From contig JANOCB010000096.1 of assembly GCA_031411975.1 (NCBI GenBank), positions 22,971-86,970 on the forward strand: a stretch of DNA of 64,000 nt, read 5' to 3'. Shown in pieces: positions 18,504 to 62,228 of this stretch. This DNA comes from Gemmatimonadaceae bacterium. GTDB lineage: Bacteria > Gemmatimonadota > Gemmatimonadetes > Gemmatimonadales > Gemmatimonadaceae. Both the position numbers and the translations under genes were made by a program. A model generated the notes under the pieces. It was not told the origin of the DNA and ran no database searches. It saw only the letters and a list, made by a program, of their open reading frames with translations. Within the stretch, counting starts at the first letter, position 1. Every line of letters begins with the position of its first letter.

Positions 18504-18842
18504 CTGGACAGGTGGCAAGAGGGACCGGCCCGCCGGACACCGGCGACGCCTTCTGGGGACAATGATGCCCCAGCACAGGGTCATACACCAACCGGCCAAT
18601 CGCCGTTGGGCTGCAATCGATGCCGGACGCAGGCGCGCGGCTGCCCCAGCGCCCGGGCCAGGTGTCCGCGAGCATGGCATCACACCCGGCCCCCTTCCGC
18701 ACCGCCGTCCGTGGGCCGATGATCACCCTCCGACGGGCAGCAGACACCCGGGGTGCCGCGTACTGGCATCACGTCAGACTGCTGTCGCCGTCCCCGCGCC
18801 GGTGCCTGGCGCGAGGCATGCCCCCCACACATCTCCCCGCAC

Positions 18843-21800
18843 ATGACGCGTTTCCCCTCGCGATCCGCGGTACCGCAGCTGCTGCTCGCCGCTGCCGGCG
18901 CCACCCTGCTGGGTGCACAGCAACCGGCCCGCGGCGCAACCACGGCGCCAGCAGCGCCCAGCCCCGCCGAACTGCTCAAGCGTGTCTCGTGGCGCTCGGT
19001 CGGACCAGCCAACAATGCCGGCCGCATCTCGGTGGTGGTCGGCGTGCCGGGCGACCCGCTCACGTACTACGTGGCCGGTGCCAACGGCGCAATCATCAAG
19101 ACCACCAATGGCGGCACCACCTTCACGCCGATCTTCGACGAGCAGAGCTCCGGCTCGATCGGCGCCATCGCCATCGCGCCGAGCGATCCGAACATCATCT
19201 ACGTCGGCACGGGCGAGGGGAATCCGCGCAACAACGCCTCGGTGGGCGACGGGATGTACAAGTCCATCGACGCGGGCGCACACTGGACGAAGATCGGCCT
19301 CGAGAAGTCCGACAAGATCGCCCGCGTCGTCATCGACTCGCGCAACCCCGACATCGTCTACGCCTGCGTGCTCGGCCGTGAGTGGGGCGCCAACCCCGAT
19401 CGCGGCGTGTATCGCACCGCCGACGGCGGCACCACCTGGAAGAAGGTGCTCTACATCGACGAGCAGACCGCCTGCTCCGACATCTCGGCCGATCCGAACA
19501 ACAGCAACATCATCTACGCCGGCATGTACACGTATCGCCGGTGGGCGTGGCACCTCGAATCGGGCAGCGGCCAGACGTCGGTGTGGAAGTCGGTGAACGG
19601 CGGCACCACATGGGAACGCCTCTCCGGCCCCGACATCCTGCGCGGCCTGCCGCGCAAGGCGATGGACCGCATCGGCGTGGCCGTGGCACCGAGTGATCCC
19701 GACATCGTCTACGTGATCAGCGAAACGAAAGATGAAGGGGAACTCTGGCGCAGTGACGACGCCGGCAAGTCATGGCGTACGGTGAACCGCGACCCGAACA
19801 TCAACTTCCGCCCGTTCTACTACGCCGACATCCGCGTCGATCCGAAGAATCCGAATCGTGTGTTCACGCTCTCGGGTGGCCTCTACTTCAGCGATGACGG
19901 TGGCCGCAACTTCACCACCATCGCCCGCGACGTGCACGGCGACCACCAGGCGATGTGGATCGACCCCGTCGATCCGCGCTACATCCTGGAAGGGAGCGAC
20001 GGCGGCTGGCAGGTGAGCCGCGATGGCGGCAAGAGCTGGGACGTGGTCAACACCTTCGCGTTCACGCAGTTCTACCACATCAACTACGACATGCAGGTGC
20101 CCTACCAGGTGTGCGGCGGTCTGCAGGACAACGGCAACTGGTGTGGTGCCAGCAACTCGCTCAGCGGTCAGGGCAACCGGCAGGCCGACTGGCGCAACAT
20201 CTCGGGGGGCGACGGATTCTTCACCGTGCCGGTCCTCGACAAGCCGTGGCTGGTGTACAGCAACTCGCAGGGCGGCATGCTCAACATCACCGACCAGCGC
20301 AGTGGTGTGCAGAAGACGATCTACCCCTACCCGAACCGGGTCGGCTCCGTCGGCGACGCGATGCTCGGCCACAAGTACCGCTTCAACTGGAACGCCCCGA
20401 TCGCGCTGTCGCCGCAGAACCCCGGCATCGTCTACTTCGGCGGCAACGTCGTCTTCAAGTCGAAGGATTATGGACTGAGCTGGGAGGTGATCTCCCCCGA
20501 CCTCACCACCAACGACCCGAAGAAGCAGGTCTCATCGGGTGGTGAGATCGTGGTGGACAACACTGCGGCGGAGTTCCACTCGTCGCTGCTCAGCATCGCC
20601 CCGTCCACGCTCGACGCGAACGTAATCTGGACGGCGTCCGACGACGGCCTCGTGCACGTCACGCGCGACGGCGGCACGACCTGGACGAAGAGCTTCGAGA
20701 ACGTGCCGGGCCTCAAGCCGAATGCCTGGCTGGCCACGATCGAGGCCTCGCGCTACGATGCAGGTACCGCCTACGTCACTGCCGATCACCATCAGGACGA
20801 CGACTACGCACCGTACGTGTTCATGACCACCGACTACGGTCGCACGTGGAAGAGCATTCGCGGCGACCTGCCGGAGCGTGCCTGGTGGACCCATGTGATC
20901 CGCGAGGATCCGAAGAACCGCAACCTGCTGTACGTCGGCACCGAAGCGGGCGTCTGGGCCTCGTGGAATCGCGGCGTGAACTGGGTCTCGCTCCGTGGTG
21001 CACTGCCGATCACGCCGGTGCGTGACATGCAGATCCATCCGCGCGACAACGACCTGATCCTCGCCACGCATGGGCGTGGCCTCTACATCCTCGACGACCT
21101 GACACCGCTGCAGAATCTCACCGCCGCGCAGACCGCCGACGCCGAGCTGTTCGATATCCGTCCCTCGATCCGCTGGAACATCTGGAACCGCGACGGCAAT
21201 CTCGGACAGCGTCGCTACGCCGGTGAGAACCCGCCGAACGGGGCGATGATCTCGTACTTCCTGAAATCGCAGCCCACCGGTGAAGTGAACATCGAGGTCG
21301 CCACCGCGTCGGGGGCCGTCGTGCGCCGGTTCCGTCGTGTGCCCGACGACGCAGGCGTCAATCGCATCACGTGGGACCTCCGCTACGAAGCCCCGGCTGG
21401 CGGTGGACTCGGTGGCCGTGGCAACCGTGGTGCCGCCGGTCCGGCGGTGGCCCCGGATACCTCACTGAAGGGGCTGCGCGAGCGACGTCGTGCCGCGGAA
21501 GCGGAGCGCGGCGGTGCAGGTGAAGAAGAAAACTTCTTCGGCCCGTCCTCGGCCGGTGTCTTGCCGGGGACGTATCAGGTCACATTGGTGGTCAACGGCA
21601 AGCGCTACACCAAGCCGGTCACCGTGCAGAACGATCCGCGTATCGAGATGACGGCGGCGCAGGTGGCGCAGCAGCACGACGCCGCCAAGGCCATCGAGGC
21701 CACGCAGCTGCGCGTGTCGCGTGTGGTGGCCGGTGTGGACGACCTGCTCCGCCAGCTGACCGGTGTGCAGACCACACTGCGCTCGGCGCGCAATGAGGCC

Positions 21801-22130
21801 CTCACGCCTGCCGCCACGGAGATCGACGGGACCATTCGCGACCTGCGGCACTTCCGCGATTCGGTCCTCGCACGACCGCTGGCCGGCCTCGGCTATCGCC
21901 AGTATCCCCGCCTGCGCGAGGAAGTGCAGACGATCAGCGGCATGATCGCCCGACCGATCTGGCCCATCACCGCCGGTGAACAGCTTCGCAGTGGCGAACT
22001 GGTGGTCGAGACCGACGATGCCCAGCGCCGCCTCGATATCATCGTCCGTGACCGCGTCGGCAAGATCAACGACCTGCTCAAGGGCACACAGCACGTCATC
22101 ACCCCGAACACGCCACGAGTTGTGCAGTAG
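18843..22130 (+). CDS. Secreted sortilin/VPS10-type BNR (Asp-box) beta-propeller protein
   Basis: Signal peptide (MTRFPSRSAVPQLLLAAAGATLLGAQQ). ~1095 aa with many repeated S-x-D-x-G-x-T-W Asp-box motifs (TNGGTTF, ADGGTTWK, VNGGTTWE, RDGGKSWD, RDGGTTWT, TDYGRTWK), characteristic of the large sortilin-like proteins. Confidence 0.8.
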   Translation: MTRFPSRSAVPQLLLAAAGATLLGAQQPARGATTAPAAPSPAELLKRVSWRSVGPANNAGRISVVVGVPGDPLTYYVAGANGAIIKTTNGGTTFTPIFDEQSSGSIGAIAIAPSDPNIIYVGTGEGNPRNNASVGDGMYKSIDAGAHWTKIGLEKSDKIARVVIDSRNPDIVYACVLGREWGANPDRGVYRTADGGTTWKKVLYIDEQTACSDISADPNNSNIIYAGMYTYRRWAWHLESGSGQTSVWKSVNGGTTWERLSGPDILRGLPRKAMDRIGVAVAPSDPDIVYVISETKDEGELWRSDDAGKSWRTVNRDPNINFRPFYYADIRVDPKNPNRVFTLSGGLYFSDDGGRNFTTIARDVHGDHQAMWIDPVDPRYILEGSDGGWQVSRDGGKSWDVVNTFAFTQFYHINYDMQVPYQVCGGLQDNGNWCGASNSLSGQGNRQADWRNISGGDGFFTVPVLDKPWLVYSNSQGGMLNITDQRSGVQKTIYPYPNRVGSVGDAMLGHKYRFNWNAPIALSPQNPGIVYFGGNVVFKSKDYGLSWEVISPDLTTNDPKKQVSSGGEIVVDNTAAEFHSSLLSIAPSTLDANVIWTASDDGLVHVTRDGGTTWTKSFENVPGLKPNAWLATIEASRYDAGTAYVTADHHQDDDYAPYVFMTTDYGRTWKSIRGDLPERAWWTHVIREDPKNRNLLYVGTEAGVWASWNRGVNWVSLRGALPITPVRDMQIHPRDNDLILATHGRGLYILDDLTPLQNLTAAQTADAELFDIRPSIRWNIWNRDGNLGQRRYAGENPPNGAMISYFLKSQPTGEVNIEVATASGAVVRRFRRVPDDAGVNRITWDLRYEAPAGGGLGGRGNRGAAGPAVAPDTSLKGLRERRRAAEAERGGAGEEENFFGPSSAGVLPGTYQVTLVVNGKRYTKPVTVQNDPRIEMTAAQVAQQHDAAKAIEATQLRVSRVVAGVDDLLRQLTGVQTTLRSARNEALTPAATEIDGTIRDLRHFRDSVLARPLAGLGYRQYPRLREEVQTISGMIARPIWPITAGEQLRSGELVVETDDAQRRLDIIVRDRVGKINDLLKGTQHVITPNTPRVVQ

Positions 22131-22145
22131 GACTTGAACGGCCGG

Positions 22146-22274
22146 CTCACACGGAGGCACGGAGCCGCAGCGATGACCGAGAGCACTGCTGTGGGAACTG
22201 CGCGCGACCGGCGCAGGGTTGTTCCCCGTCAGTCTTTCTCATCGTTTCTCTGCGGCTCCGTGTCTCCGTGTGAG
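22146..22274. repeat. Palindromic intergenic repeat element, copy A (REP/MITE-like)
   Basis: Terminal inverted repeats CTCACACGGAGGCACGGAGCCGCAG … CTGCGGCTCCGTGTCTCCGTGTGAG (24/25 complementary), ~80 bp apart, with an internal nested palindrome GGGAAC…GTTCCC. Lies between the convergent sortilin-like gene and fabZ. Homologous to the copy at 58788..58928. Confidence 0.5.
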
Positions 22275-22323: not shown

Positions 22324-22803
22324 TCAGCCCAGCGCGGCCCGCTCACGGGCGTCGGCCACGCGCATGATCGTCGTCAGGTCAGCCCGTACCACGTCCACCG
22401 AGCCCACGCGTGCGATGCCACGCGTCTTGCAGACGCCGCGCTTGAACTGCTGCAGCTCGATCGTCAGGTCGAGCACGTCGCCCGGCGCGGCGCGGCCGCG
22501 GAACCGCACGTTGGTGATGCCCAGGAAGTAGCCCACTGCGCCGGCGCTGCCATCGATGAGCGTCACCAGCACCGCCGCCGAGAGCTGCGCGAGCGCCTCG
22601 ACGATCAGCAGATGCGGCATTTCGAGCGCGGCGGCATCACGGGTCGAGCCGATGCTGCTCCATTCGTTGCCCGTCACCGTCTTCACACCGGTCGCGCGCT
22701 TGCCCGGCTCCACGCTGGTGATGCGATCCACCAGCAGCAGCGGGAATCGGTGCGGGAGCAGCGTGAGCGGCTCGATCGATGCGGGCGACACGGGTGACGT
22801 CAT
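22324..22803 (-). CDS. fabZ: 3-hydroxyacyl-[ACP] dehydratase
   Basis: LPHRFPLLLVDRI…G…E…H hot-dog fold signature of FabZ. 159 aa. Confidence 0.85.
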   Translation of the reverse strand: MTSPVSPASIEPLTLLPHRFPLLLVDRITSVEPGKRATGVKTVTGNEWSSIGSTRDAAALEMPHLLIVEALAQLSAAVLVTLIDGSAGAVGYFLGITNVRFRGRAAPGDVLDLTIELQQFKRGVCKTRGIARVGSVDVVRADLTTIMRVADARERAALG

Positions 22804-46892: not shown

Positions 46893-48182
46893 ATGATAGC
46901 GATCAAGGTGCCACCGCTCGGCGAGTCGATCGTCGAGGCGACCGTGTCACGCTGGCTCAAGCAGGAGGGCGAAGCCGTTGCAGCAGGCGACACCCTCGTC
47001 GAACTCGAAACCGACAAGATCACGGTCGAGGTGCCGGCCCTGAAGTCTGGCGTCCTCGCCGCACGCTCGAAGGCCGAGGGTGACGTGGTTGCCGTCGACG
47101 ACGTGCTTGGTCAGCTCGACGAATCCGGTGTCGCCGGTGGTGCCGCGATGGCGACGTCCCCCGCCGATCCGCCGCCGGTGCCTCACGACCCGTCCGATGG
47201 TCCGGCCCCGGTGCCGATCCTGCTGTCGGCCGCCGGCGATCCGCCGCCGCCGGTGCCGCATGACCCCTCCGACGGCCCTGCGCCCGTGCCGATCCTGATG
47301 CGATCGGCGCCAGCAGCGCGGCGCACGGCCGACGAAGCGGGCGTGGACATCGCGACGGTTGCAGGCACCGGTCGCGGTGGTGTCGTGAGCAAGACCGATG
47401 TGATCAACGCCGTGGCCGCCGGCGCCAAGCCGGCTCCCGCTGCGTCGGCGGCGCCGGCGGCCGCACCCGCACCCGCACGCACGGGTGAACGCGAGACGCG
47501 CGAGAAGATGACGACGCGCCGCAAGCGCATCGCCGAGAATCTCCTGCTGGCGCAGCACAGCACCGCACACCTGACCACCTTCAACGAGATCGACATGAGC
47601 GCCACCACGGCGCTGCGTGCCCGACTCAAGGACAAGGTCGAGAAGGAGCATGGCGTGAAGCTCAGCTTCATGCCCTTCTTCGTGAAGGCTGCCAGCATGG
47701 CACTGAAAGCCTACCCGCTGGTGAACTCGCAGATCGACGGCGACACGATCGTCTACAAGCACTACGTCAACATGGGCATCGCCGTCGCCAGCGACGCGGG
47801 CCTGGTGGTGCCGAACGTGAAGGACGCCGACCAGAAGGGGATGCTCGCCATCAGCCGTGACATCGCGAACCTGGCCAGCAAGGCGCGCAGCGGCAAGCTG
47901 GCGATGGACGACCTCACCGGCGGCACCTTCACCATCACCAATGGCGGTGTCTTCGGCTCGCTCATCTCGACGCCGATCATCAACTTCCCGCAGGTGGCCA
48001 TCCTCGGCCTGCACAAGACGCAGGACCGCCCGGTCGCCATCGACGGCAAGGTCGAGATCCGCCCGATGATGTACGTGGCCCTCAGCTACGACCATCGCGT
48101 CATCGACGGGCAGCAGGCCGTGCTCTTCCTCGTCCGGATCAAGGAGTTGATGGAAGATCCGGCCGCCATGCTGGTGGACTGA
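46893..48182 (+). CDS. sucB: Dihydrolipoamide acyltransferase E2 component (2-oxo acid dehydrogenase complex; likely succinyltransferase)
   Basis: Lipoyl domain (…[11 protein letters not shown]…), E3-binding domain, and catalytic domain with DHRVIDG. The linker contains a tandem duplicated 17-aa Pro-rich segment. lpdA follows. Confidence 0.8.
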
Positions 48183-53598: not shown

Positions 53599-54366
53599 AT
53601 GGATCCCATGACTCCCGACGTGCCCGTTGCTGCCACGGAGGTCGTTGCCGTTCCGGCGGCGCCCGTGAAGCGCAGCCCAGGTCATCGCGGCACCGACATT
53701 CGCGACACCGTCGCTGAAATGACCGCCCGCGCGAACGAAATCCAGTTCGAAGCTGGCAGCAAGATGGCGAATGCGCTCCGGAACATCGTGCGTGCTGCCA
53801 TCGCCGACACCGAGCTGAGCCTGGAGAGCACCCGGGACGTCGTCGATTACTTCCGTCGTCGCGCCCTGATGTCCACCGAGGACGCGCAGGGACTGCTGGA
53901 TGAGGTCGCGGAGTATGCGTCGAAGCGCAAGCCGGTCGAACCGCCGGCCGGCAAGACGCCGCCCGGAAAGCCGAATGCCGCCAAGGTGACGCCGCTGGCC
54001 AGTCTGGCCGAGCGACTGTCGCTGCCTGCGGCGCCGGAAGGGAATGTTGGTCGGCCGACTGCCGGACCGCCGACCATTTCCTCTCCGGCACCTGCTCCGG
54101 TCAAGGTGGCGCCGCCATCGCCGATCCCGGAGCCGGCAGTGATTCCGCTCGCGAAGACGTCCGTGGCCAAGGCCGCCCCGAAGGTCGAGGCCAAGCCGGC
54201 AGCCAAGGTCGAAAAGGCTGCCCCGCCCGCAGCAAAGGCCGCAGCGCCGGCGAAGGCGGCGGCTGCCCCTGCCGCCAAGACCGCCGCCAAGGCCCCGGCA
54301 GCAAAGGCCCCAGCCACCAAGACTGCGGCCAAGACACCAGCCAAGACCGCAGCCAAGAAGAAGTGA
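53599..54366 (+). CDS. Histone H1-like / phasin-like protein with an Ala-Lys-Pro repeat tail
   Basis: ~110-aa helical N-domain, then a ~120-aa low-complexity tail of AAKAP/KTAAK repeats ending in KKK (AlgP/H1-like). Confidence 0.5.
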   Translation: MDPMTPDVPVAATEVVAVPAAPVKRSPGHRGTDIRDTVAEMTARANEIQFEAGSKMANALRNIVRAAIADTELSLESTRDVVDYFRRRALMSTEDAQGLLDEVAEYASKRKPVEPPAGKTPPGKPNAAKVTPLASLAERLSLPAAPEGNVGRPTAGPPTISSPAPAPVKVAPPSPIPEPAVIPLAKTSVAKAAPKVEAKPAAKVEKAAPPAAKAAAPAKAAAAPAAKTAAKAPAAKAPATKTAAKTPAKTAAKKK

Positions 54367-57474: not shown

Positions 57475-58526
57475 CCTCTCCATATTCTGCAGCGATGACT
57501 GCTGACCCGACCGTTCTCGATCGCATCTTCAACCGACTCGTGCGGGCCTTGTCGGTCGGCAGCCCCGACCAGCTGTCGGCCCCGTTCACGGTCTCCGACA
57601 TCGTCCAGGCGCTCGTGCCCTATCGCACGTATCGCGCGGAGCTCGGGGTGGACACGGTGCAGGACTACGAGCACGCCGTGCTGGAGTTGCTGGCCGGCGA
57701 GCGCGGATTGCTGGTGGTGGATCCGGACACGGTGGCCGCGATTCGCAAGGAACTCGCGTCGCCTGACCCCGACACCGGTATGCTGCACCGCCTGCAGCAG
57801 GTCGAGGCCCGGCTCGGTGCCGTCCGAATGCCGATCCTGATCGACGAGCGTGCCACCGCGCCGCGCGAGGAGCCGGTGCGCGAGTCGGGCACGCCGCGAG
57901 ACGTGATCCTCTCCGACGCGGCCGTGATCGGTGCCGCGATGGATCTGGAGGATGCCGAGCTGGCACGTGCGGCATCCGTCGATCAGCGGCGTACACCGGC
58001 GGCGACGACACCAGCACCGCCGCTGCCAGTGGCCTCGCCAGCAGGCACGTTGCCGTCGGTGGCCGATCTGACGGCACTGGTGCCTGCCGAACCACCGGGC
58101 ACGACCCCGCTGCAGTCTGTGCAGGGCGTGACGCTGGCGAGTGCCGCGACGCTCGCGCGCATCACCCCCCTCAACACGCCGTCGGTGTATGGCGACCCGA
58201 TCGACTTCCGCGGTGTCCGGCACGCGCCGGTGGACATCGGTGGCGTGATCTTCCTGTTCGGCATGATCGCGCGCGAGTTGGGCTTCCATGTCGAGGCGCT
58301 GTCGAGTGGCTTTCCTCGCTGCGAAGCCAAGCGACAGCTGGCCCCGGGCAAGTGGGCGCGCCTGCGCATCGACTTCGAGCTGGAGAGCCGGCATTTCCGC
58401 GATGCCGGCCGCAATCCGGCCACGGTGGACCTGATCATCTGCTGGCGCGACACCTGGCCCAACCGCCCCGCCTCGATCGACGTGCTGGCGCTCGACCGCA
58501 TCCTTCCGACTCTCGCGCGCGACTAG
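57471..58526 (+). CDS. Hypothetical protein, possible PD-(D/E)xK-like C-terminal domain
   Basis: GTG start overlapping the rnhA stop. Pro/Thr-rich middle linker. The C-terminal ~130 aa contain PVD…(≈30 aa)…EAK and IDFELE acidic motifs. The nuclease assignment is speculative. Confidence 0.45.
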   Translation: MTSPYSAAMTADPTVLDRIFNRLVRALSVGSPDQLSAPFTVSDIVQALVPYRTYRAELGVDTVQDYEHAVLELLAGERGLLVVDPDTVAAIRKELASPDPDTGMLHRLQQVEARLGAVRMPILIDERATAPREEPVRESGTPRDVILSDAAVIGAAMDLEDAELARAASVDQRRTPAATTPAPPLPVASPAGTLPSVADLTALVPAEPPGTTPLQSVQGVTLASAATLARITPLNTPSVYGDPIDFRGVRHAPVDIGGVIFLFGMIARELGFHVEALSSGFPRCEAKRQLAPGKWARLRIDFELESRHFRDAGRNPATVDLIICWRDTWPNRPASIDVLALDRILPTLARD

Positions 58527-58531
58527 CCCCG

Positions 58532-58762
58532 ATGCCCAACACCGCTGCCATCGACCGTGGGGGGCCGTGTCCCTTCTGCACCCACCTGTTGCCGCAGGGC
58601 CGCGCCGTGACGTTCTGCCCGCACTGCGGCATGAACGTCACCGTGGCGCAGTGCCCCGCCTGCAGCAGCGAAGTGCAGGCGGGGTGGCACTACTGCGTGA
58701 CCTGCGGGCGCGACGTGAGTGCGATGCCGATCATTCAGGGCACCCTTCCGCGGGAGCCGTAG
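58532..58762 (+). CDS. Double zinc-ribbon protein (76 aa)
   Basis: CPFC…CPHC…CPAC…CVTC: four CxxC pairs. Confidence 0.5.
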   Translation: MPNTAAIDRGGPCPFCTHLLPQGRAVTFCPHCGMNVTVAQCPACSSEVQAGWHYCVTCGRDVSAMPIIQGTLPREP

Positions 58763-58787: not shown

Positions 58788-58928
58788 CTCACACGGAGGC
58801 ACGGTGCCACGGAGGGATTGCTCGCGGCGCCGCCGGGGTCTTTTCCATGCCATCTCCTCTGAGCGCACGTGCAGCGCGGGAGGTCCCTGCGCAGGGTTCT
58901 GCTCCGTGACTCCGCGCCTCCGTGTGAG
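58788..58928. repeat. Palindromic intergenic repeat element, copy B (REP/MITE-like)
   Basis: CTCACACGGAGGCACGGTGCCACGGAGG … GCGCAGGGTT … CCGTGACTCCGCGCCTCCGTGTGAG. Shares its termini and an internal GCGCAGGGTT block with copy A (22146..22274). Lies between the convergent zinc-ribbon and KAS III genes. Confidence 0.5.
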
Positions 58929-58959: not shown

Positions 58960-59964
58960 TCAGTACGTGATCGCCGCACCGCCGAGTGAGAGACCGGCGG
59001 CGAGCCCGAACAGCAGCACACGGTCGCCGCGGCGCACGCGTCCCGACGCAATCGATTCGGCCAGGGCGAGCGGCATCGATGCCGCGATGCAGTTGCCACG
59101 GGTGGCGAGGTTCTGAACGATCTGCTCCTCGCGAAAGCCCAGCAGCTTCCAGCCCAGTTCAATGCCGTGACGGCTCGCCTGATGCGGCACCACCGCCGCG
59201 ATGTCGTCACGCTGCCAGCCCGCGTCGGCGCAGAGTGCGTCCATGAACGGCAGCAGCAGCGGCGCCGCCTTGCGGAAGAGTTGCGGGCCCCGCATGGCGA
59301 AGAGGTTGTGCGCGAGCGTGGTGGCCGGATCGTTGGGATGATGCAGCGTTCCGCCACCGCTGATCTGACTCAGCTCGGCGCCGCTGTGCCAGGTCTGCAG
59401 CCGTGTGCAGTGCAACGCGCTCTCCGTGTTGCCGGCATGCGAGACGATCACCGCCGCTGCGGCATCGCCGAACAACACCGCACTTTCGGGCTCGGCAGGG
59501 TTCAGGCTGTGCCCGGCGTTCTCGCTGCTGAACACGAGCACGTGTCGGTGCGCGCCTGCGGCGACGAGCCGCGCGGCCACGTCGAAGGCGGCGAGGAAGG
59601 AGAGACAGGTGGCATTGACGTCGAAACAGGACGCCACCCCTTCCGGTGCACCGAGCTCCCGCTGGACGAAGACGGCGGTGCATGGAATCGCCTGCTGCGG
59701 CGTGCTCGAGGCACCGATGATCGCCGTCAGGTCGCCGGCCGTGAGCCCCGCCATCGCCAGGGCCTCCCGTGCCGCCGACGCGGCCATCACCGACGAACTT
59801 TCACCATCGGCACGACGCCGTTCGCGGACCCCGGTTCGATCGAAGATCCAGCCGGGCGCGAGGCCAAGCTGGGCCTCCAGCTCATCGTTCGTGACGATGC
59901 GTGCCGGCAGATACGCCCCTGCGCCCGAGATGCGCACAGGGAGTGAGGCAGGAGTCATGGTCAT
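58960..59964 (-). CDS. 3-oxoacyl-ACP synthase III-like condensing enzyme (FabH/OleA/DarB-type)
   Basis: Cys-His-Asn triad context (…FDVNATCLSFLAA…, …VVPHQASRHG…, …TRGNCIAASMPLAL…). 334 aa. Confidence 0.8.
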   Translation of the reverse strand: MTMTPASLPVRISGAGAYLPARIVTNDELEAQLGLAPGWIFDRTGVRERRRADGESSSVMAASAAREALAMAGLTAGDLTAIIGASSTPQQAIPCTAVFVQRELGAPEGVASCFDVNATCLSFLAAFDVAARLVAAGAHRHVLVFSSENAGHSLNPAEPESAVLFGDAAAAVIVSHAGNTESALHCTRLQTWHSGAELSQISGGGTLHHPNDPATTLAHNLFAMRGPQLFRKAAPLLLPFMDALCADAGWQRDDIAAVVPHQASRHGIELGWKLLGFREEQIVQNLATRGNCIAASMPLALAESIASGRVRRGDRVLLFGLAAGLSLGGAAITY

Positions 59965-61301
59965 GACGCCTGCAGCTCGCGGGCGGCATCGCGCTTCCAG
60001 CTGCAGACCACCCGGCGCCGCTTCATGCCAGCAGGCAACGGTGCGATGCCGTCGCTCACCATCACCGCGGTCGCATGGCAGCCGTACTCCGCGAGCGACG
60101 AGCGCACGCTCTGCTCGAGCCGGGCTGCGACGTCGCGGAACGACGCCCCCGATCGCACGACCACCTGCAAGGACAGCGCGCCCGGTACCGACTGCTCGGC
60201 GCGATACTCCGCGATCTGCGTATCGGCCAGCAGCACCATGCGTCGGATCGCATCGGGGAACACCGCCCGCAGCGAGTCGTCCGACTGCGGAAACCAGCAG
60301 AGATCATCCTGACGCCCCTCGATTGCGGCGATGCGCTGCCAGGAGGAGCCGCAGGGGCACGGTGCCATGTCGAGCTGGAGGATGTCGCCAAGGCGGTACC
60401 GGATGATCGGCTGCGTGCGACGCCAGAGATCGGTGAGGATCGGGGTCACACGCGAGGGGTCGGCGGCGGACACCGTTTCACGTTGCATCACCATCACATC
60501 CTCCTGCACATGGAGTGATCCGCGGCGGCAGGTCACCGCAACGAGGCCCTCCGTGCACTGATAGACCTCACCGACGGGCACCTGGAACACCTGTTCGAGT
60601 CGGGCGCGGTCATGGGGTTCGATCACCTCGGCCACCGAAACGAGGCGCGTGGGGTGCACGTGCAGCGTGCCATTCTCCCGGGCATCGGCCAGGAGAGCCA
60701 GCAGCGACGGCGGTCCGACGATCAGCCTGGGGCGGAAGGTGTTGAGCGTCGCGATCACCTGGGCGAGGGGCTGCATGAGGTCGAAGAACCGGAACTGCAC
60801 CACGGACGACGTGCGCTCGTACAGTCGGCTGTTGGCACGCAGGAAGAAGGCGACGCGGTGACCGGGGCGAAGGTCGGGAATGGCGCGGGCGAGGATGGTG
60901 CCGGCCCAGCGCGTCTGCTCCTCGGGGCTGACGAGGAAGAGTCCGCGGTGTCCCGACGTGCCGCTGGAAAGCCCGACGGTGCAGCCATCGATGTCGGCGG
61001 AAAAGTCGCGGTCCTGCTCTGCCCGGAGTGCGACTTCCATGGCACGCTCACGCAGAATGCCCCGTGTGTTGAAACGGTCGAAGTGCCGCATCATCAGCGC
61101 CTTGTCCAGCGTCGGGAAGTTGCGCCAGTCGGCGGTGGCGCGACCGGCCCAATGGTCGCGGTGGAAGGGGCTCGTGGCGCGCACGTCGCGCACCAGCTCC
61201 GCCGCACGCCGTTCGTGCCATTCAGCCAGCCGGGTTCCATGCAGCGTGACGGCACGCCATCGCGCCGCGATGTAGTGCGCGGCGATGTCGAGGCGCGTCA
61301 T
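59961..61301 (-). CDS. Adenylate-forming enzyme, coenzyme-F390-synthetase / PaaK / CapK-like
   Basis: P-loop-like GLSSGTSGHRGLFLV and a C-terminal …RYRLGDILQL… of the PaaK/F390-synthetase clade of the ANL superfamily. ATGA overlap with the KAS III start. Confidence 0.6.
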   Translation of the reverse strand: MTRLDIAAHYIAARWRAVTLHGTRLAEWHERRAAELVRDVRATSPFHRDHWAGRATADWRNFPTLDKALMMRHFDRFNTRGILRERAMEVALRAEQDRDFSADIDGCTVGLSSGTSGHRGLFLVSPEEQTRWAGTILARAIPDLRPGHRVAFFLRANSRLYERTSSVVQFRFFDLMQPLAQVIATLNTFRPRLIVGPPSLLALLADARENGTLHVHPTRLVSVAEVIEPHDRARLEQVFQVPVGEVYQCTEGLVAVTCRRGSLHVQEDVMVMQRETVSAADPSRVTPILTDLWRRTQPIIRYRLGDILQLDMAPCPCGSSWQRIAAIEGRQDDLCWFPQSDDSLRAVFPDAIRRMVLLADTQIAEYRAEQSVPGALSLQVVVRSGASFRDVAARLEQSVRSSLAEYGCHATAVMVSDGIAPLPAGMKRRRVVCSWKRDAARELQAS

Positions 61302-61323: not shown

Positions 61324-61407
61324 TGATCAAGGGGTCAGACACCATGGTGCCGATCAAGGGGTCAGAGCCCTTGAAAACGCATCGCCCGATCAAGGGGTCA
61401 GACACCT
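61324..61407. repeat. Three spaced copies of a ~20-bp direct repeat in the only intergenic gap of the operon
   Basis: tGATCAAGGGGTCAGACACC (61324), cGATCAAGGGGTCAGAgCCC (61351), cGATCAAGGGGTCAGACACC (61388), plus a partial CGATCAAG at 61312. Spacings are 27 and 37 bp. Confidence 0.5.
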
Positions 61408-62228
61408 TGAACATGCTCCGCCCATGCCAGCGTCTCCGGACAGTGCGTCGGCAGGATCGTGACGTCGGGCCGAGCGCGCGCGAAGTCGCGCAACCCGCGC
61501 AACGTCGTGCGCAGCGCCGGCACATCGTCCTGCATCAGGGCGGTGATCCAGTGCGGCGGACGGAATTCGCGGAACGCCTGCGAGGTCCAGGCGCCATCGG
61601 CGCAGAGCAGCACGTCACCCGAGGCGGTCCGCACCAGGGCACCGATCTGACCGCGGGCGTGACCGGGGAGCGGTACGAGCCGGATGCTGCCGTCGCCCAG
61701 CAGATCGTGCGTGGCGCCGAGATGGGGCAGTGATGCGGCGTCGAAGCCAGTGATCACCTCGGCGCGTTCGCCGAAGTCATCCGGAAAGAGTTGTTGCACG
61801 ATTCCCCGCCGGACGGCGTCGACGCCCCGCGACACTCGTTGCAGCGCGAGTGCCTCGCGGGTGACGACGAAGCGGGCCGATGCGAAGTCGCGAAGCCCGG
61901 CGACATGGTCGGCATGCAGGTGCGACACGATGATCGTGCCCACGGCCTCGGGCTGAACACCAAGCTGCTGGACACCCTCGGCCACCGGGATGCCGACGAT
62001 GGTTGGGGTGGCGTACTTGTAGAGTCGCTCCGGCCACTGCGCAAAGGCGTCGAGCAGTCGCGGGGCGTACCCGGTGTCGAAGAGGATGGCGCCGCGCTGT
62101 GGATGCCGAAGCAGGAAGGCAGGCGCGTGACATCGGACTTCGTCCCAGCCAGTGCCGGTCGCGATGAGCGACGACCGCGCGCTGCAGTACCCAGTATCGA
62201 GCACGTCGAGTTGCATTGTCGGTTTCAT
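61398..62228 (-). CDS. MBL-fold metallo-hydrolase
   Basis: HxHxDH motif (IIVSHLHADHVAGL) plus downstream His/Asp ligands (…PLPGHARGQ…, …LPTHCPET…). Confidence 0.8.
   Translation of the reverse strand: MKPTMQLDVLDTGYCSARSSLIATGTGWDEVRCHAPAFLLRHPQRGAILFDTGYAPRLLDAFAQWPERLYKYATPTIVGIPVAEGVQQLGVQPEAVGTIIVSHLHADHVAGLRDFASARFVVTREALALQRVSRGVDAVRRGIVQQLFPDDFGERAEVITGFDAASLPHLGATHDLLGDGSIRLVPLPGHARGQIGALVRTASGDVLLCADGAWTSQAFREFRPPHWITALMQDDVPALRTTLRGLRDFARARPDVTILPTHCPETLAWAEHVQGV

Follow-up and report, generated by a model that had tools for sequence, protein, structure and literature searches.

Two intergenic palindromes of a Gemmatimonadaceae genome as probable gene-less members of a multi-phylum family of octamer-armed GxxExxY cassettes

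Two palindromic elements, copies A and B, in a 64,000-nucleotide stretch of Gemmatimonadaceae DNA (the whole stretch that was analysed, hereafter the window) are probably gene-less 'shell' members of a cassette family that occurs in many phyla, has arms made of tandem octamers and encloses a GxxExxY nuclease gene in its full-length form. We put the probability of this reading at roughly 0.6. The arms of the family have one architecture across phyla and are tightly associated with GxxExxY genes, elements are present, absent, replaced or inverted at orthologous sites of relatives, and both copies in the window can fold into long hairpins. These two are most likely decaying passengers, not regulators.

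Two palindromic elements between convergent genes

The original prediction described two elements with inverted, near-identical termini and a common internal block, each situated between convergently transcribed genes, and our analysis bears this out. Copy A (22146..22274, 129 bp) is composed of two arms and an imperfectly palindromic interior of 73 nt. It starts 15 nt after the stop of a Sortilin/BNR-repeat gene (18753..22130, plus strand) and is followed, 49 nt beyond its end, by the stop of a FabA-like dehydratase gene on the minus strand (22324..22803). Copy B (58788..58928, 141 bp, interior of 87 nt) lies between a double-zinc-ribbon gene (58352..58762, plus strand), whose stop is 25 nt before the element, and the gene of FabH (ketoacyl-ACP synthase III; 58960..59964, minus strand), whose stop is 31 nt beyond it. 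The 17-mer CTCACACGGAGGCACGG matches exactly at 22146-22162 and 58788-58804 on the plus strand and, with one mismatch each, in inverted orientation at 22258-22274 and 58912-58928 on the minus strand. When up to three mismatches were allowed there were four matches in the window against 0.6 expected, a number that no shuffled sequence reached, and a relaxed scan of the window found no copy besides A and B.

A repeat finder delimited inverted arms of 28 nt with 93% complementarity in copy A and of 27 nt with 89% complementarity in copy B. The left arm of A (22146-22173, plus strand) reads CTCA followed by CACGGAGG, CACGGAGC and CGCAGCGA, the third of these units being degenerate, and its right arm (22247-22274) reads, on the minus strand, CTCA, CACGGAGA, CACGGAGC and CGCAGAGA. 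In copy B the left arm (58788-58814, plus strand) reads CTCA, CACGGAGG, CACGGTGC and CACGGAG, and the right arm (58902-58928, minus strand) reads CTCA, CACGGAGG, CGCGGAGT and CACGGAG. Inverted termini are thus present, as had been predicted, but the single formula proposed for the right end does not hold to the letter, as the sequence there is CCGTGTCTCCGTGTGAG in A and CCGCGCCTCCGTGTGAG in B. The 10-mer GCGCAGGGTT is common to both interiors (22211-22220 in A, 58889-58898 in B), which otherwise cannot be aligned with each other.

Folding, suggested as a check of the original prediction, gave near full-length hairpins for both copies on both strands, with energies of -92.3 kcal/mol (z -10.2) on the plus strand and -79.3 kcal/mol (z -6.6) on the minus strand for copy A, and of -82.7 (z -3.9) and -83.0 kcal/mol (z -5.3), respectively, for copy B. 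No canonical promoters were found at the elements. Intrinsic (Rho-independent) termination was rejected for both copies: no terminator-like site was called on either strand, the tails being GACTGGTTGCC and GGGCGTTGTGG, and the canonical bidirectional terminator that had been proposed is contradicted by the lack of a U-tract. Searches of the window and of 18 related loci against Rfam yielded no match at the gathering score, and noise alone at E <= 10.

Octamer arms and their distribution

The arms are CTCA followed by two to three tandem octamers CACGGAGR, mirrored at the opposite end. Across related loci the general unit is C-R-C-R-R-A-G plus one base, of which CACGGAG+R is the flavour found in the window, and the arrays are capped by CTCAC...GTGAG (or GTGAA); A and B both have at least two tandem units C-R-C-R-R-A-G+N inward of an inverted CTCAC...GTGAG. 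An arm usually holds three units (three in 100 arms, two in 46). The eighth base of the unit is a purine in 93% of the cases (G 131, A 92, C 11, T 5) and is often unlike between the two arms of an element, which argues that the heptamer is conserved beyond mere pairing. Palindromy often extends outward from CTCAC by a few to 19 nt, for example by AGCCACAGCAACTCCC in the elements of two relatives of the window organism (L205 and L206).

A scan with the arm pattern CTCACACGGAGRCRCGG, using one genome per species, reported at least 117 loci, where chance alone is expected to give a few hundred matches to a 32-bit pattern over 1.2e12 positions. Among the 137 matches listed, however, the next unit (AG) was completed in 103, versus 6% by chance, a third unit was present in 97, and an inverted array was found within 600 nt in 57; about half of the listed arm matches had no inverted partner nearby. 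The loci listed across genomes thus contradict the outcome by which the original prediction would have fallen, namely that the two copies in the window are the only ones. The hosts listed belong to Gemmatimonadota, Verrucomicrobiota/Kiritimatiellia, Opitutia, Planctomycetota, Spirochaetota, Chloroflexota, Acidobacteriota, Bacteroidota and Pseudomonadota (Gammaproteobacteria), the GC content of the loci listed ranges from 39 to 76%, and twelve of these loci are in a single Longimicrobium MAG. In AT-rich hosts the arms are still GC-rich and the interior is AT-rich (L092, L104). Carriage by phages was rejected, as 2.9 million viral contigs gave only five arm matches.

Element sizes are bimodal, with hairpins of 56-90 nt and forms of 120-520 nt in which the arms enclose about 100-500 nt of unrelated sequence; one locus (L027) holds four hairpins in tandem. 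By a crude ORF-based classification, which is unreliable in high-GC DNA, about nine elements are between convergent genes, 22 between tandem and four between divergent ones, and there are additional copies within ORFs, so that the preference for convergent junctions supposed in the original prediction was not seen. Arms occur in frame within RHS ORFs of Kiritimatiellia (L098, L004), and in L139 an hsdR gene has cassettes fused to its first codons. A full-text literature search, with subscription journals outside its coverage, found no description of the arm strings. The octamer composition of the arms, their spread over phyla and the GxxExxY gene of the full-length form had escaped the earlier, sequence-only reading of the window.

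This architecture bears on the two classes, REP/BIME and MITE, to which the elements had been likened and with which they share a small, non-coding, dispersed body that is palindromic or ends in terminal inverted repeats. REP/BIME-type elements mobilised by a RAYT (TnpA-REP) HUH transposase would also be expected to be intergenic, palindromic and multi-copy in some genomes. The arm, however, is a purine-rich octamer array with the head CTCAC, and not a self-complementary or self-palindromic 20-40-mer with a GTAG-type head; the arms are near-identical across phyla, unlike the species-specific REPs, and no HUH transposase was found among the neighbours. We therefore rejected this identity, which appears highly improbable. 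As for a classical MITE, that is, a deletion derivative of an insertion sequence on whose termini a DDE (or similar) transposase acts in trans, A and B do have terminal inverted repeats (27-28 bp) around a small non-coding body, the family is dispersed, and both filled and empty sites exist among relatives. Target-site duplications, which the original prediction had advised looking for, are missing, as no direct repeats flank A or B. Of 70 elements, only eight had repeats in their flanks that exceeded the 99th percentile of controls; these eight belong to one hsdR lineage or a tandem array and show a duplication of about 28 nt of the host start. Furthermore, no transposase domain was detected among 206 ORFs adjoining arms, nor was a parent insertion sequence found that has a transposase and ends in these terminal repeats; the arms are tandem octamers of variable number, and the only recurrent cargo is the GxxExxY nuclease. 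The label MITE-like can be kept loosely, for gene-less copies of a gene-carrying form, while the classical MITE was rejected and is improbable.

The GxxExxY cassette

The full-length form of the element encloses one gene, encoding a GxxExxY protein (TIGR04256 / PF13366 PDDEXK_3) of about 120-150 amino acids. A fold search assigned this protein to the PD-(D/E)XK nuclease fold, with an invariant D...ExK triad; this was the informative search, as one by sequence, with the GxxExxY profile against the PDB, found no relative. In a Gemmatimonadaceae MAG, a full cassette of 485 bp (L050) encloses an ORF of 150 amino acids, and the same MAG also holds a gene-less element of 152 bp (L045). A homologous gene in Planctomycetota (L065) is flanked by two hairpins of 77 nt, and both ORFs are GxxExxY (TIGR04256, E about 1e-38; PF13366). 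The gene is flanked by complete hairpins, and not by single arms, in L151 and L191 as well, and decayed remnants of GxxExxY genes lie between the arms of Sedimenticola loci. A full cassette with the exact ends CTCACACGGAG...CTCCGTGTGAG was found in L210/L211. L211 comes from the same run (SRR20217183) as L119, a sequence identical to the window over the aligned region of FabH and copy B, a shared run being not necessarily a shared genome. The Gemmatimonadaceae organism of the window is known from metagenomes only.

The association was also evident from the protein side. A metagenome scan for GxxExxY relatives gave 74 loci, 66 of them with both flanks, and octamer arrays were found within 200 nt of the gene in 62 of these 66, on both sides in 47, the rest of these loci having a background of 0.49 arrays per kb. 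Thirty-four of the 66 show the canonical layout 5′-(C)TCAC(GCGGAGNC)n - ORF - (GNCTCCGC)nGTGA-3′. The flavour of the unit depends on the lineage, with CGCGGAG counted 181 times, CGCAAAG 89, CGCAGAG 60, CGCGAAG 23 and CACGGAG 9. The 5′ arm lies in the leader of the gene and the 3′ arm is often translated as the C-terminal tail of the protein, the consensus end of 52 homologs being ...RIVNxLxPSASPRLRVN. Within the loci scanned, no recurrent gene other than GxxExxY was found inside arms. Arms and cassettes have unrelated housekeeping genes as neighbours, and none of these encodes a transposase, which indicates that the cassette is a one-gene unit.

Proteins of the GxxExxY / PDDEXK_3 type are very abundant, E <= 1e-10 being reached by 7,994 of the 8,000 candidates scored, and gene-less frames are scattered in intergenic spacers of many phyla. 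The proteins are annotated without function, and one source mislabels them as iron-transport proteins. The full-text literature searched for GxxExxY, PF13366 and TIGR04256 mentions PF13366 only as 'unknown' with multiple transfers, and leaves the arms undescribed.

Neither A nor B encloses a PDDEXK_3 / TIGR04256 ORF. As their interiors are only 73 and 87 nt and a tblastn search of the 64-kb window found no match to the GxxExxY gene, we regard them as gene-less derivatives of the cassette or members that are free of cargo. Copy B may retain traces of the gene. At 58815..58835 on the minus strand, CGGCGGCGCCGCGAGCAATCC matches CGCCGACGCCGAGCAATCC of L210, the last codons of the ORF just inside the 3′ arm of that cassette, with a local score of 21 against 11.8 +/- 2.7 (reached in 11 of 2000 shuffles), and may be what remains of a GxxExxY ORF at its 3′ end. 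The block of copy B that contains GCGCAGGGTT (58879..58898, minus strand) reads CCCTGCGCAGGGACCTCC and resembles CCCTGCGCATCGACCTGC, which encodes ALRIDLL, the catalytic-Asp motif of the L210 ORF; the ortholog of this block in a close relative (L120) scored z = 5 against the L210 cassette. These matches, short and borderline as they are, are suggestive of copy B being an internally deleted cassette. Copy A, including 22211-22220, gave nothing over noise when compared with the GxxExxY ORF.

It is possible, if doubtful, that the hairpin (arm-loop-arm) is the primary mobile unit and is moved by some other host or element factor, in which case GxxExxY would be a mere lodger and A and B would never have borne a gene. 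The short hairpins are the commonest form, the Longimicrobium MAG contributes twelve loci, L027 has four hairpins in tandem, whole hairpins flank the gene in three loci, the interiors of elements are mutually unrelated, and copy A has no ORF relic. On the other hand, arms accompany the gene at 62 of 66 loci, no other gene family was found inside arms in the loci scanned, copy B has its borderline relics, and the arms supply the leader of the gene and often its C-terminal tail. Chance lodging is hard to square with arms that are so integrated into the gene. Still, within the reading of A and B as shells of a cassette family, the arms that stand unpartnered, about half of those listed, and the genes that lie between whole hairpins suggest that the hairpin, and not the gene, may be the basic unit.

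Turnover at orthologous sites and relation to known elements

Relatives of the window organism were ordered by the protein identity of FabH, which with the zinc-ribbon gene flanks site B, and of the FabA-like dehydratase, which with the Sortilin gene flanks site A. At site B, the element in the relative with 96% FabH identity (L120) is orthologous to copy B. Of two relatives with 90% identity, one (L122) is empty, with a spacer of 19 nt, and the other (L121) is filled by an element with window-like arms and an unrelated interior. Two further ones at 85-86% (L123, L124) have an unrelated small gene and no arms. At site A, two relatives with 92% FabA-like identity are filled, by elements of 134 bp (L205) and 150 bp (L206), and those at 90% (L204) and 83% (L207) lack the element and have a different neighbour, with spacers of 36 and 32 nt, respectively. 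L120 and L205, L122 and L206, and L121 and L204 share a sample or contig, and each pair is likely to represent one genome. Presence/absence polymorphism is thus found at orthologous sites, with insertion boundaries that are imprecise at the level of single bases.

Copy B has diverged at the neutral, synonymous-site rate: between the window and L120 the element is 90.8% identical and the third codon positions of FabH are 91.6% identical, and of four changes in the arms two keep wobble pairs and two break pairs. A different pattern was obtained with L121, whose arms are identical to those of copy B at 24 of 27 and 25 of 27 positions, while its interior matches no better than shuffled sequence (51 matches versus 47 +/- 2.4) and the third positions of FabH are 57% identical. 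Conservation of the arms far above neutral in this relative fits re-insertion, and equally selection on the arms. Compensatory changes in the stem, which the original prediction had named among its criteria, were not demonstrated with three alignable orthologs, which are too few; the four 'compensatory' pairs seen among them are all in the poorly aligned centre. Within an element the two halves resemble each other no more closely than orthologs do, giving no sign of concerted evolution in the interior.

These comparisons weigh on the suggestion that the host retains these elements as bidirectional terminators, or as 3′-end stabilisers of the mRNAs of convergent gene pairs. Both copies do lie 15-50 nt past the stops of convergent genes, their hairpins are very stable on both strands, and the site-A orthologs can still fold into full-length hairpins (z about -9.7) although their interior has diverged. 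Such a role is nevertheless unlikely given the lack of a U-tract, the empty orthologous site of L122, the neutral drift of copy B with half of its arm changes breaking pairs, and the occurrence of members in all genomic contexts, including tandem and divergent spacers and ORFs. In addition, the exact heptamer is conserved across phyla, which the structure by itself would not require.

At site A the interior of the element can also differ in orientation. The interiors of L205 and L206 are 96% identical when one is read as the reverse complement and 64% identical in the forward direction, and their flanks are 88-92% identical with orientation unchanged, which indicates that the interior was flipped between the arms. 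One arm of L206 holds four octamers where that of L205 holds two. Such a flip, together with the repeated GGA-containing units, could speak for a regulatory RNA (a CsrA/RsmE sponge) or a recombinase-flipped inverton, as CACGGAGG fits the CsrA/RsmE motif, CANGGANG. Yet homologous recombination suffices for inversion between 27-bp inverted repeats, and an element between two gene 3′ ends leaves nothing for a switch to control. The GGA units are buried in the stem, there are no promoter-like sites, and no Rfam match was obtained even at E <= 10; the family is moreover present in Bacteroidota, in which CsrA is not known to be widespread. We rejected the sponge on the grounds of the paired GGA units and of taxonomy, and both forms of this explanation are highly improbable.

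The closest known analogue of the elements is the intervening sequence (IVS) of 23S rRNA, found in Coxiella, Leptospira, Salmonella and others (PMC4990558). The IVS of Coxiella ends in a 28-bp stem with GACAGAT heptamers repeated in tandem a variable number of times, and its inner ORF is decaying; RNase III, of which the stem is a substrate, cuts the IVS out, and the insertion is thereby harmless (PMC4990558). The window elements and their family resemble IVSs in being apparently selfish insertions whose complementary termini form a long stem, in the variable number of short tandem repeats in the arm, which A and B both display, and in the optional single small decaying ORF, as ORF-less versions exist (PMC4990558). 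The sporadic distribution of IVSs has been put down to horizontal transfer (PMC4990558). There are clear differences: IVSs lie in helix 25 or 45 of 23S rRNA, whereas the window copies are in intergenic spacers; the unit of the present family is the octamer CACGGAGR; and the IVS ORF encodes a four-helix-bundle S23p protein (PF05635), whereas that of the cassette encodes the PD-(D/E)XK protein GxxExxY. An IVS proper was rejected for A and B, as Rfam found no rRNA in the window and both lie between protein genes. A motif regex found no S23p-like ORFs near arms in the collected loci, so the link to rRNA IVSs is one of analogy, and the same holds for RNase III cutting when it is carried over to the window elements.

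Correia/NEMIS elements of Neisseria and ERIC/IRU elements of enterobacteria are imperfect palindromes of 100-150 bp. They occupy transcribed regions between genes, where they form long mRNA hairpins that affect processing or stability, and their sites may be filled or empty between strains. The window elements share with them the palindromic size class, the long hairpins and the filled and empty sites. Those families, however, are confined to a genus or family and have no sequence relation to the present one, Correia elements make a TA target duplication, and neither type has octamer-array arms or a known gene-carrying form. Rickettsia palindromic elements are selfish palindromic repeats that can sit in frame in protein genes, as do the arms in RHS ORFs and the cassettes at the hsdR start, but they are restricted to Rickettsia and lack both octamer arms and an accompanying nuclease gene. 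Free-standing homing endonucleases of the PD-(D/E)XK type, for instance I-Ssp6803I, have one cognate site and no bracketing inverted arrays; the cassettes likewise place a small PD-(D/E)XK nuclease in a compact selfish unit and make no target duplication, but occupy many unrelated sites and are bracketed by inverted repeat arrays. Octamer-array arms, multi-phylum spread and PD-(D/E)XK cargo set the family apart from known elements.

Taking A and B as shells of the GxxExxY cassette family, we infer that shells are selfish passengers rather than signals selected by the host, which would have arisen as internally deleted cassettes or as hairpins that never carried cargo. Their movement or copying probably depends on the nuclease that full-length cassettes at other places in the genome supply in trans, and this enzyme may recognise the repeated octamers or a cruciform or hairpin formed by the arms. 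When transcribed as the 3′ tail of the convergent flanking genes, the arms would form a long double-stranded RNA stem. By analogy with the IVSs of 23S rRNA, this stem could serve as a target of RNase III, or it could stop 3′ exonucleases, and such processing would make an insertion nearly harmless. The 5′ arm of a full cassette, rich in GGAG, is situated immediately before the start codon and may be sequestered by the CUCC-rich 3′ arm, which would keep expression of the nuclease low. Only tentatively do we extend this to a class of single-gene selfish cassettes, whose nuclease would recognise the arrays and thereby copy or move the unit, and whose arms would render the transcript self-excising or self-insulating. 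Just as tentatively, this might be the design of the 23S rRNA intervening sequence extended to other places, namely intergenic spacers and even the opening codons of host genes.

The copies in the window are most likely ordinary decaying relics whose practical message is modest, and their interest lies in the family that they reveal, which brings together a repeat and a protein family, both hitherto anonymous, as a single selfish-element system that can be tested. If the cassette is indeed recognised by its nuclease, the very large GxxExxY family would gain a biological role, and the system could offer a model, possibly a general one, of how rRNA intervening sequences arose. The family also marks repeats that are able to invert, expand and recombine within genomes, and it accounts for a class of assembly breaks, an example being contig L118, which ends within copy B.

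Tandem copies and variation in unit number

In a Caldilinea MAG (locus L027, 1648-2001), the hairpin element is 77-78 nt long and occurs four times in tandem with a period of 91-93 nt. The repeat period takes in a 14-nt spacer along with the hairpin, and as the spacer is repeated with it, the four copies arose by tandem duplication. Differences in unit number were found between two contigs, L208 and L209, which carry an identical Longimicrobium GxxExxY gene but have unequal numbers of CTCCGTGTC units in their 3′ hairpins; in L208 the hairpin downstream of the GxxExxY stop codon (approximately 1648-1800) is strongly expanded. The octamer arrays grow and shrink.

Cassettes and arms within host genes, and annotation of the GxxExxY protein

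At locus L139 (117-816), an hsdR-type restriction gene (ResIII/HSDR_N) is occupied in its first codons by two cassettes, one carrying GxxExxY and the other decayed, an arrangement seen also in L133, L135-L137, L140, L142, L144, L150 and L177. Such loci contain three copies of a host start region of about 28 nt (CCAACCATGAACGAAnCCGAAnACAGAG). Each cassette ORF has a duplicated host ATG as its start codon and terminates in an ATGA that overlaps the ATG which follows, so that translation could be coupled through the cassettes into hsdR. In Kiritimatiellia, arms were found in frame within giant RHS/YD-repeat ORFs (L098, 6241-6397; L004, 2231-2435 and 6486-6690). They are translated as SHTEARR... 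and ...LRASVSPCE, and the segment between them is a normal-looking RHS repeat (TYAYDHIGN...).

Many GxxExxY proteins in the homologous-protein search carry the JGI label 'iron complex transport system substrate-binding protein', and one NCBI record reads 'Fe3+ hydroxamate ABC transporter substrate-binding protein'. These iron-transport labels look like a propagated mis-annotation of a 140-aa PD-(D/E)XK protein.

Element B and other repeats of the window

For the window's own strain, one short-read contig (L118, 3594-3680) terminates within element B; the palindrome breaks assemblies. In the two relatives with 85-86% FabH identity, a small ORF lies in the spacer between FabH and the zinc-ribbon gene (L123, 3670-4101; L124, 11194-11712). 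It encodes a hydrophobic N-terminus and, after it, Arg/Asp/Tyr repeats of the RYERDRYE type; the window lacks this ORF.

Two tandem 36-nt units (CCGATCAAGGGGTCAGAGCCCTTGAAAACGCATCGC; 83% identical) at 61350-61421, each holding a small dyad, CAAGGG..CCCTTG, sit a short way upstream of the start of a minus-strand 446-aa ORF (59961-61301) and could be operator or leader repeats. In-frame coding repeats at 47169-47300 and 54253-54357 comprise two copies (84% identical) of a proline-rich unit of 57 nt, together with Lys/Ala-rich units with 24- and 42-nt spacing (AAGGCGGCGGCTGCC...), the latter resembling histone-like or AlgP-type tails.
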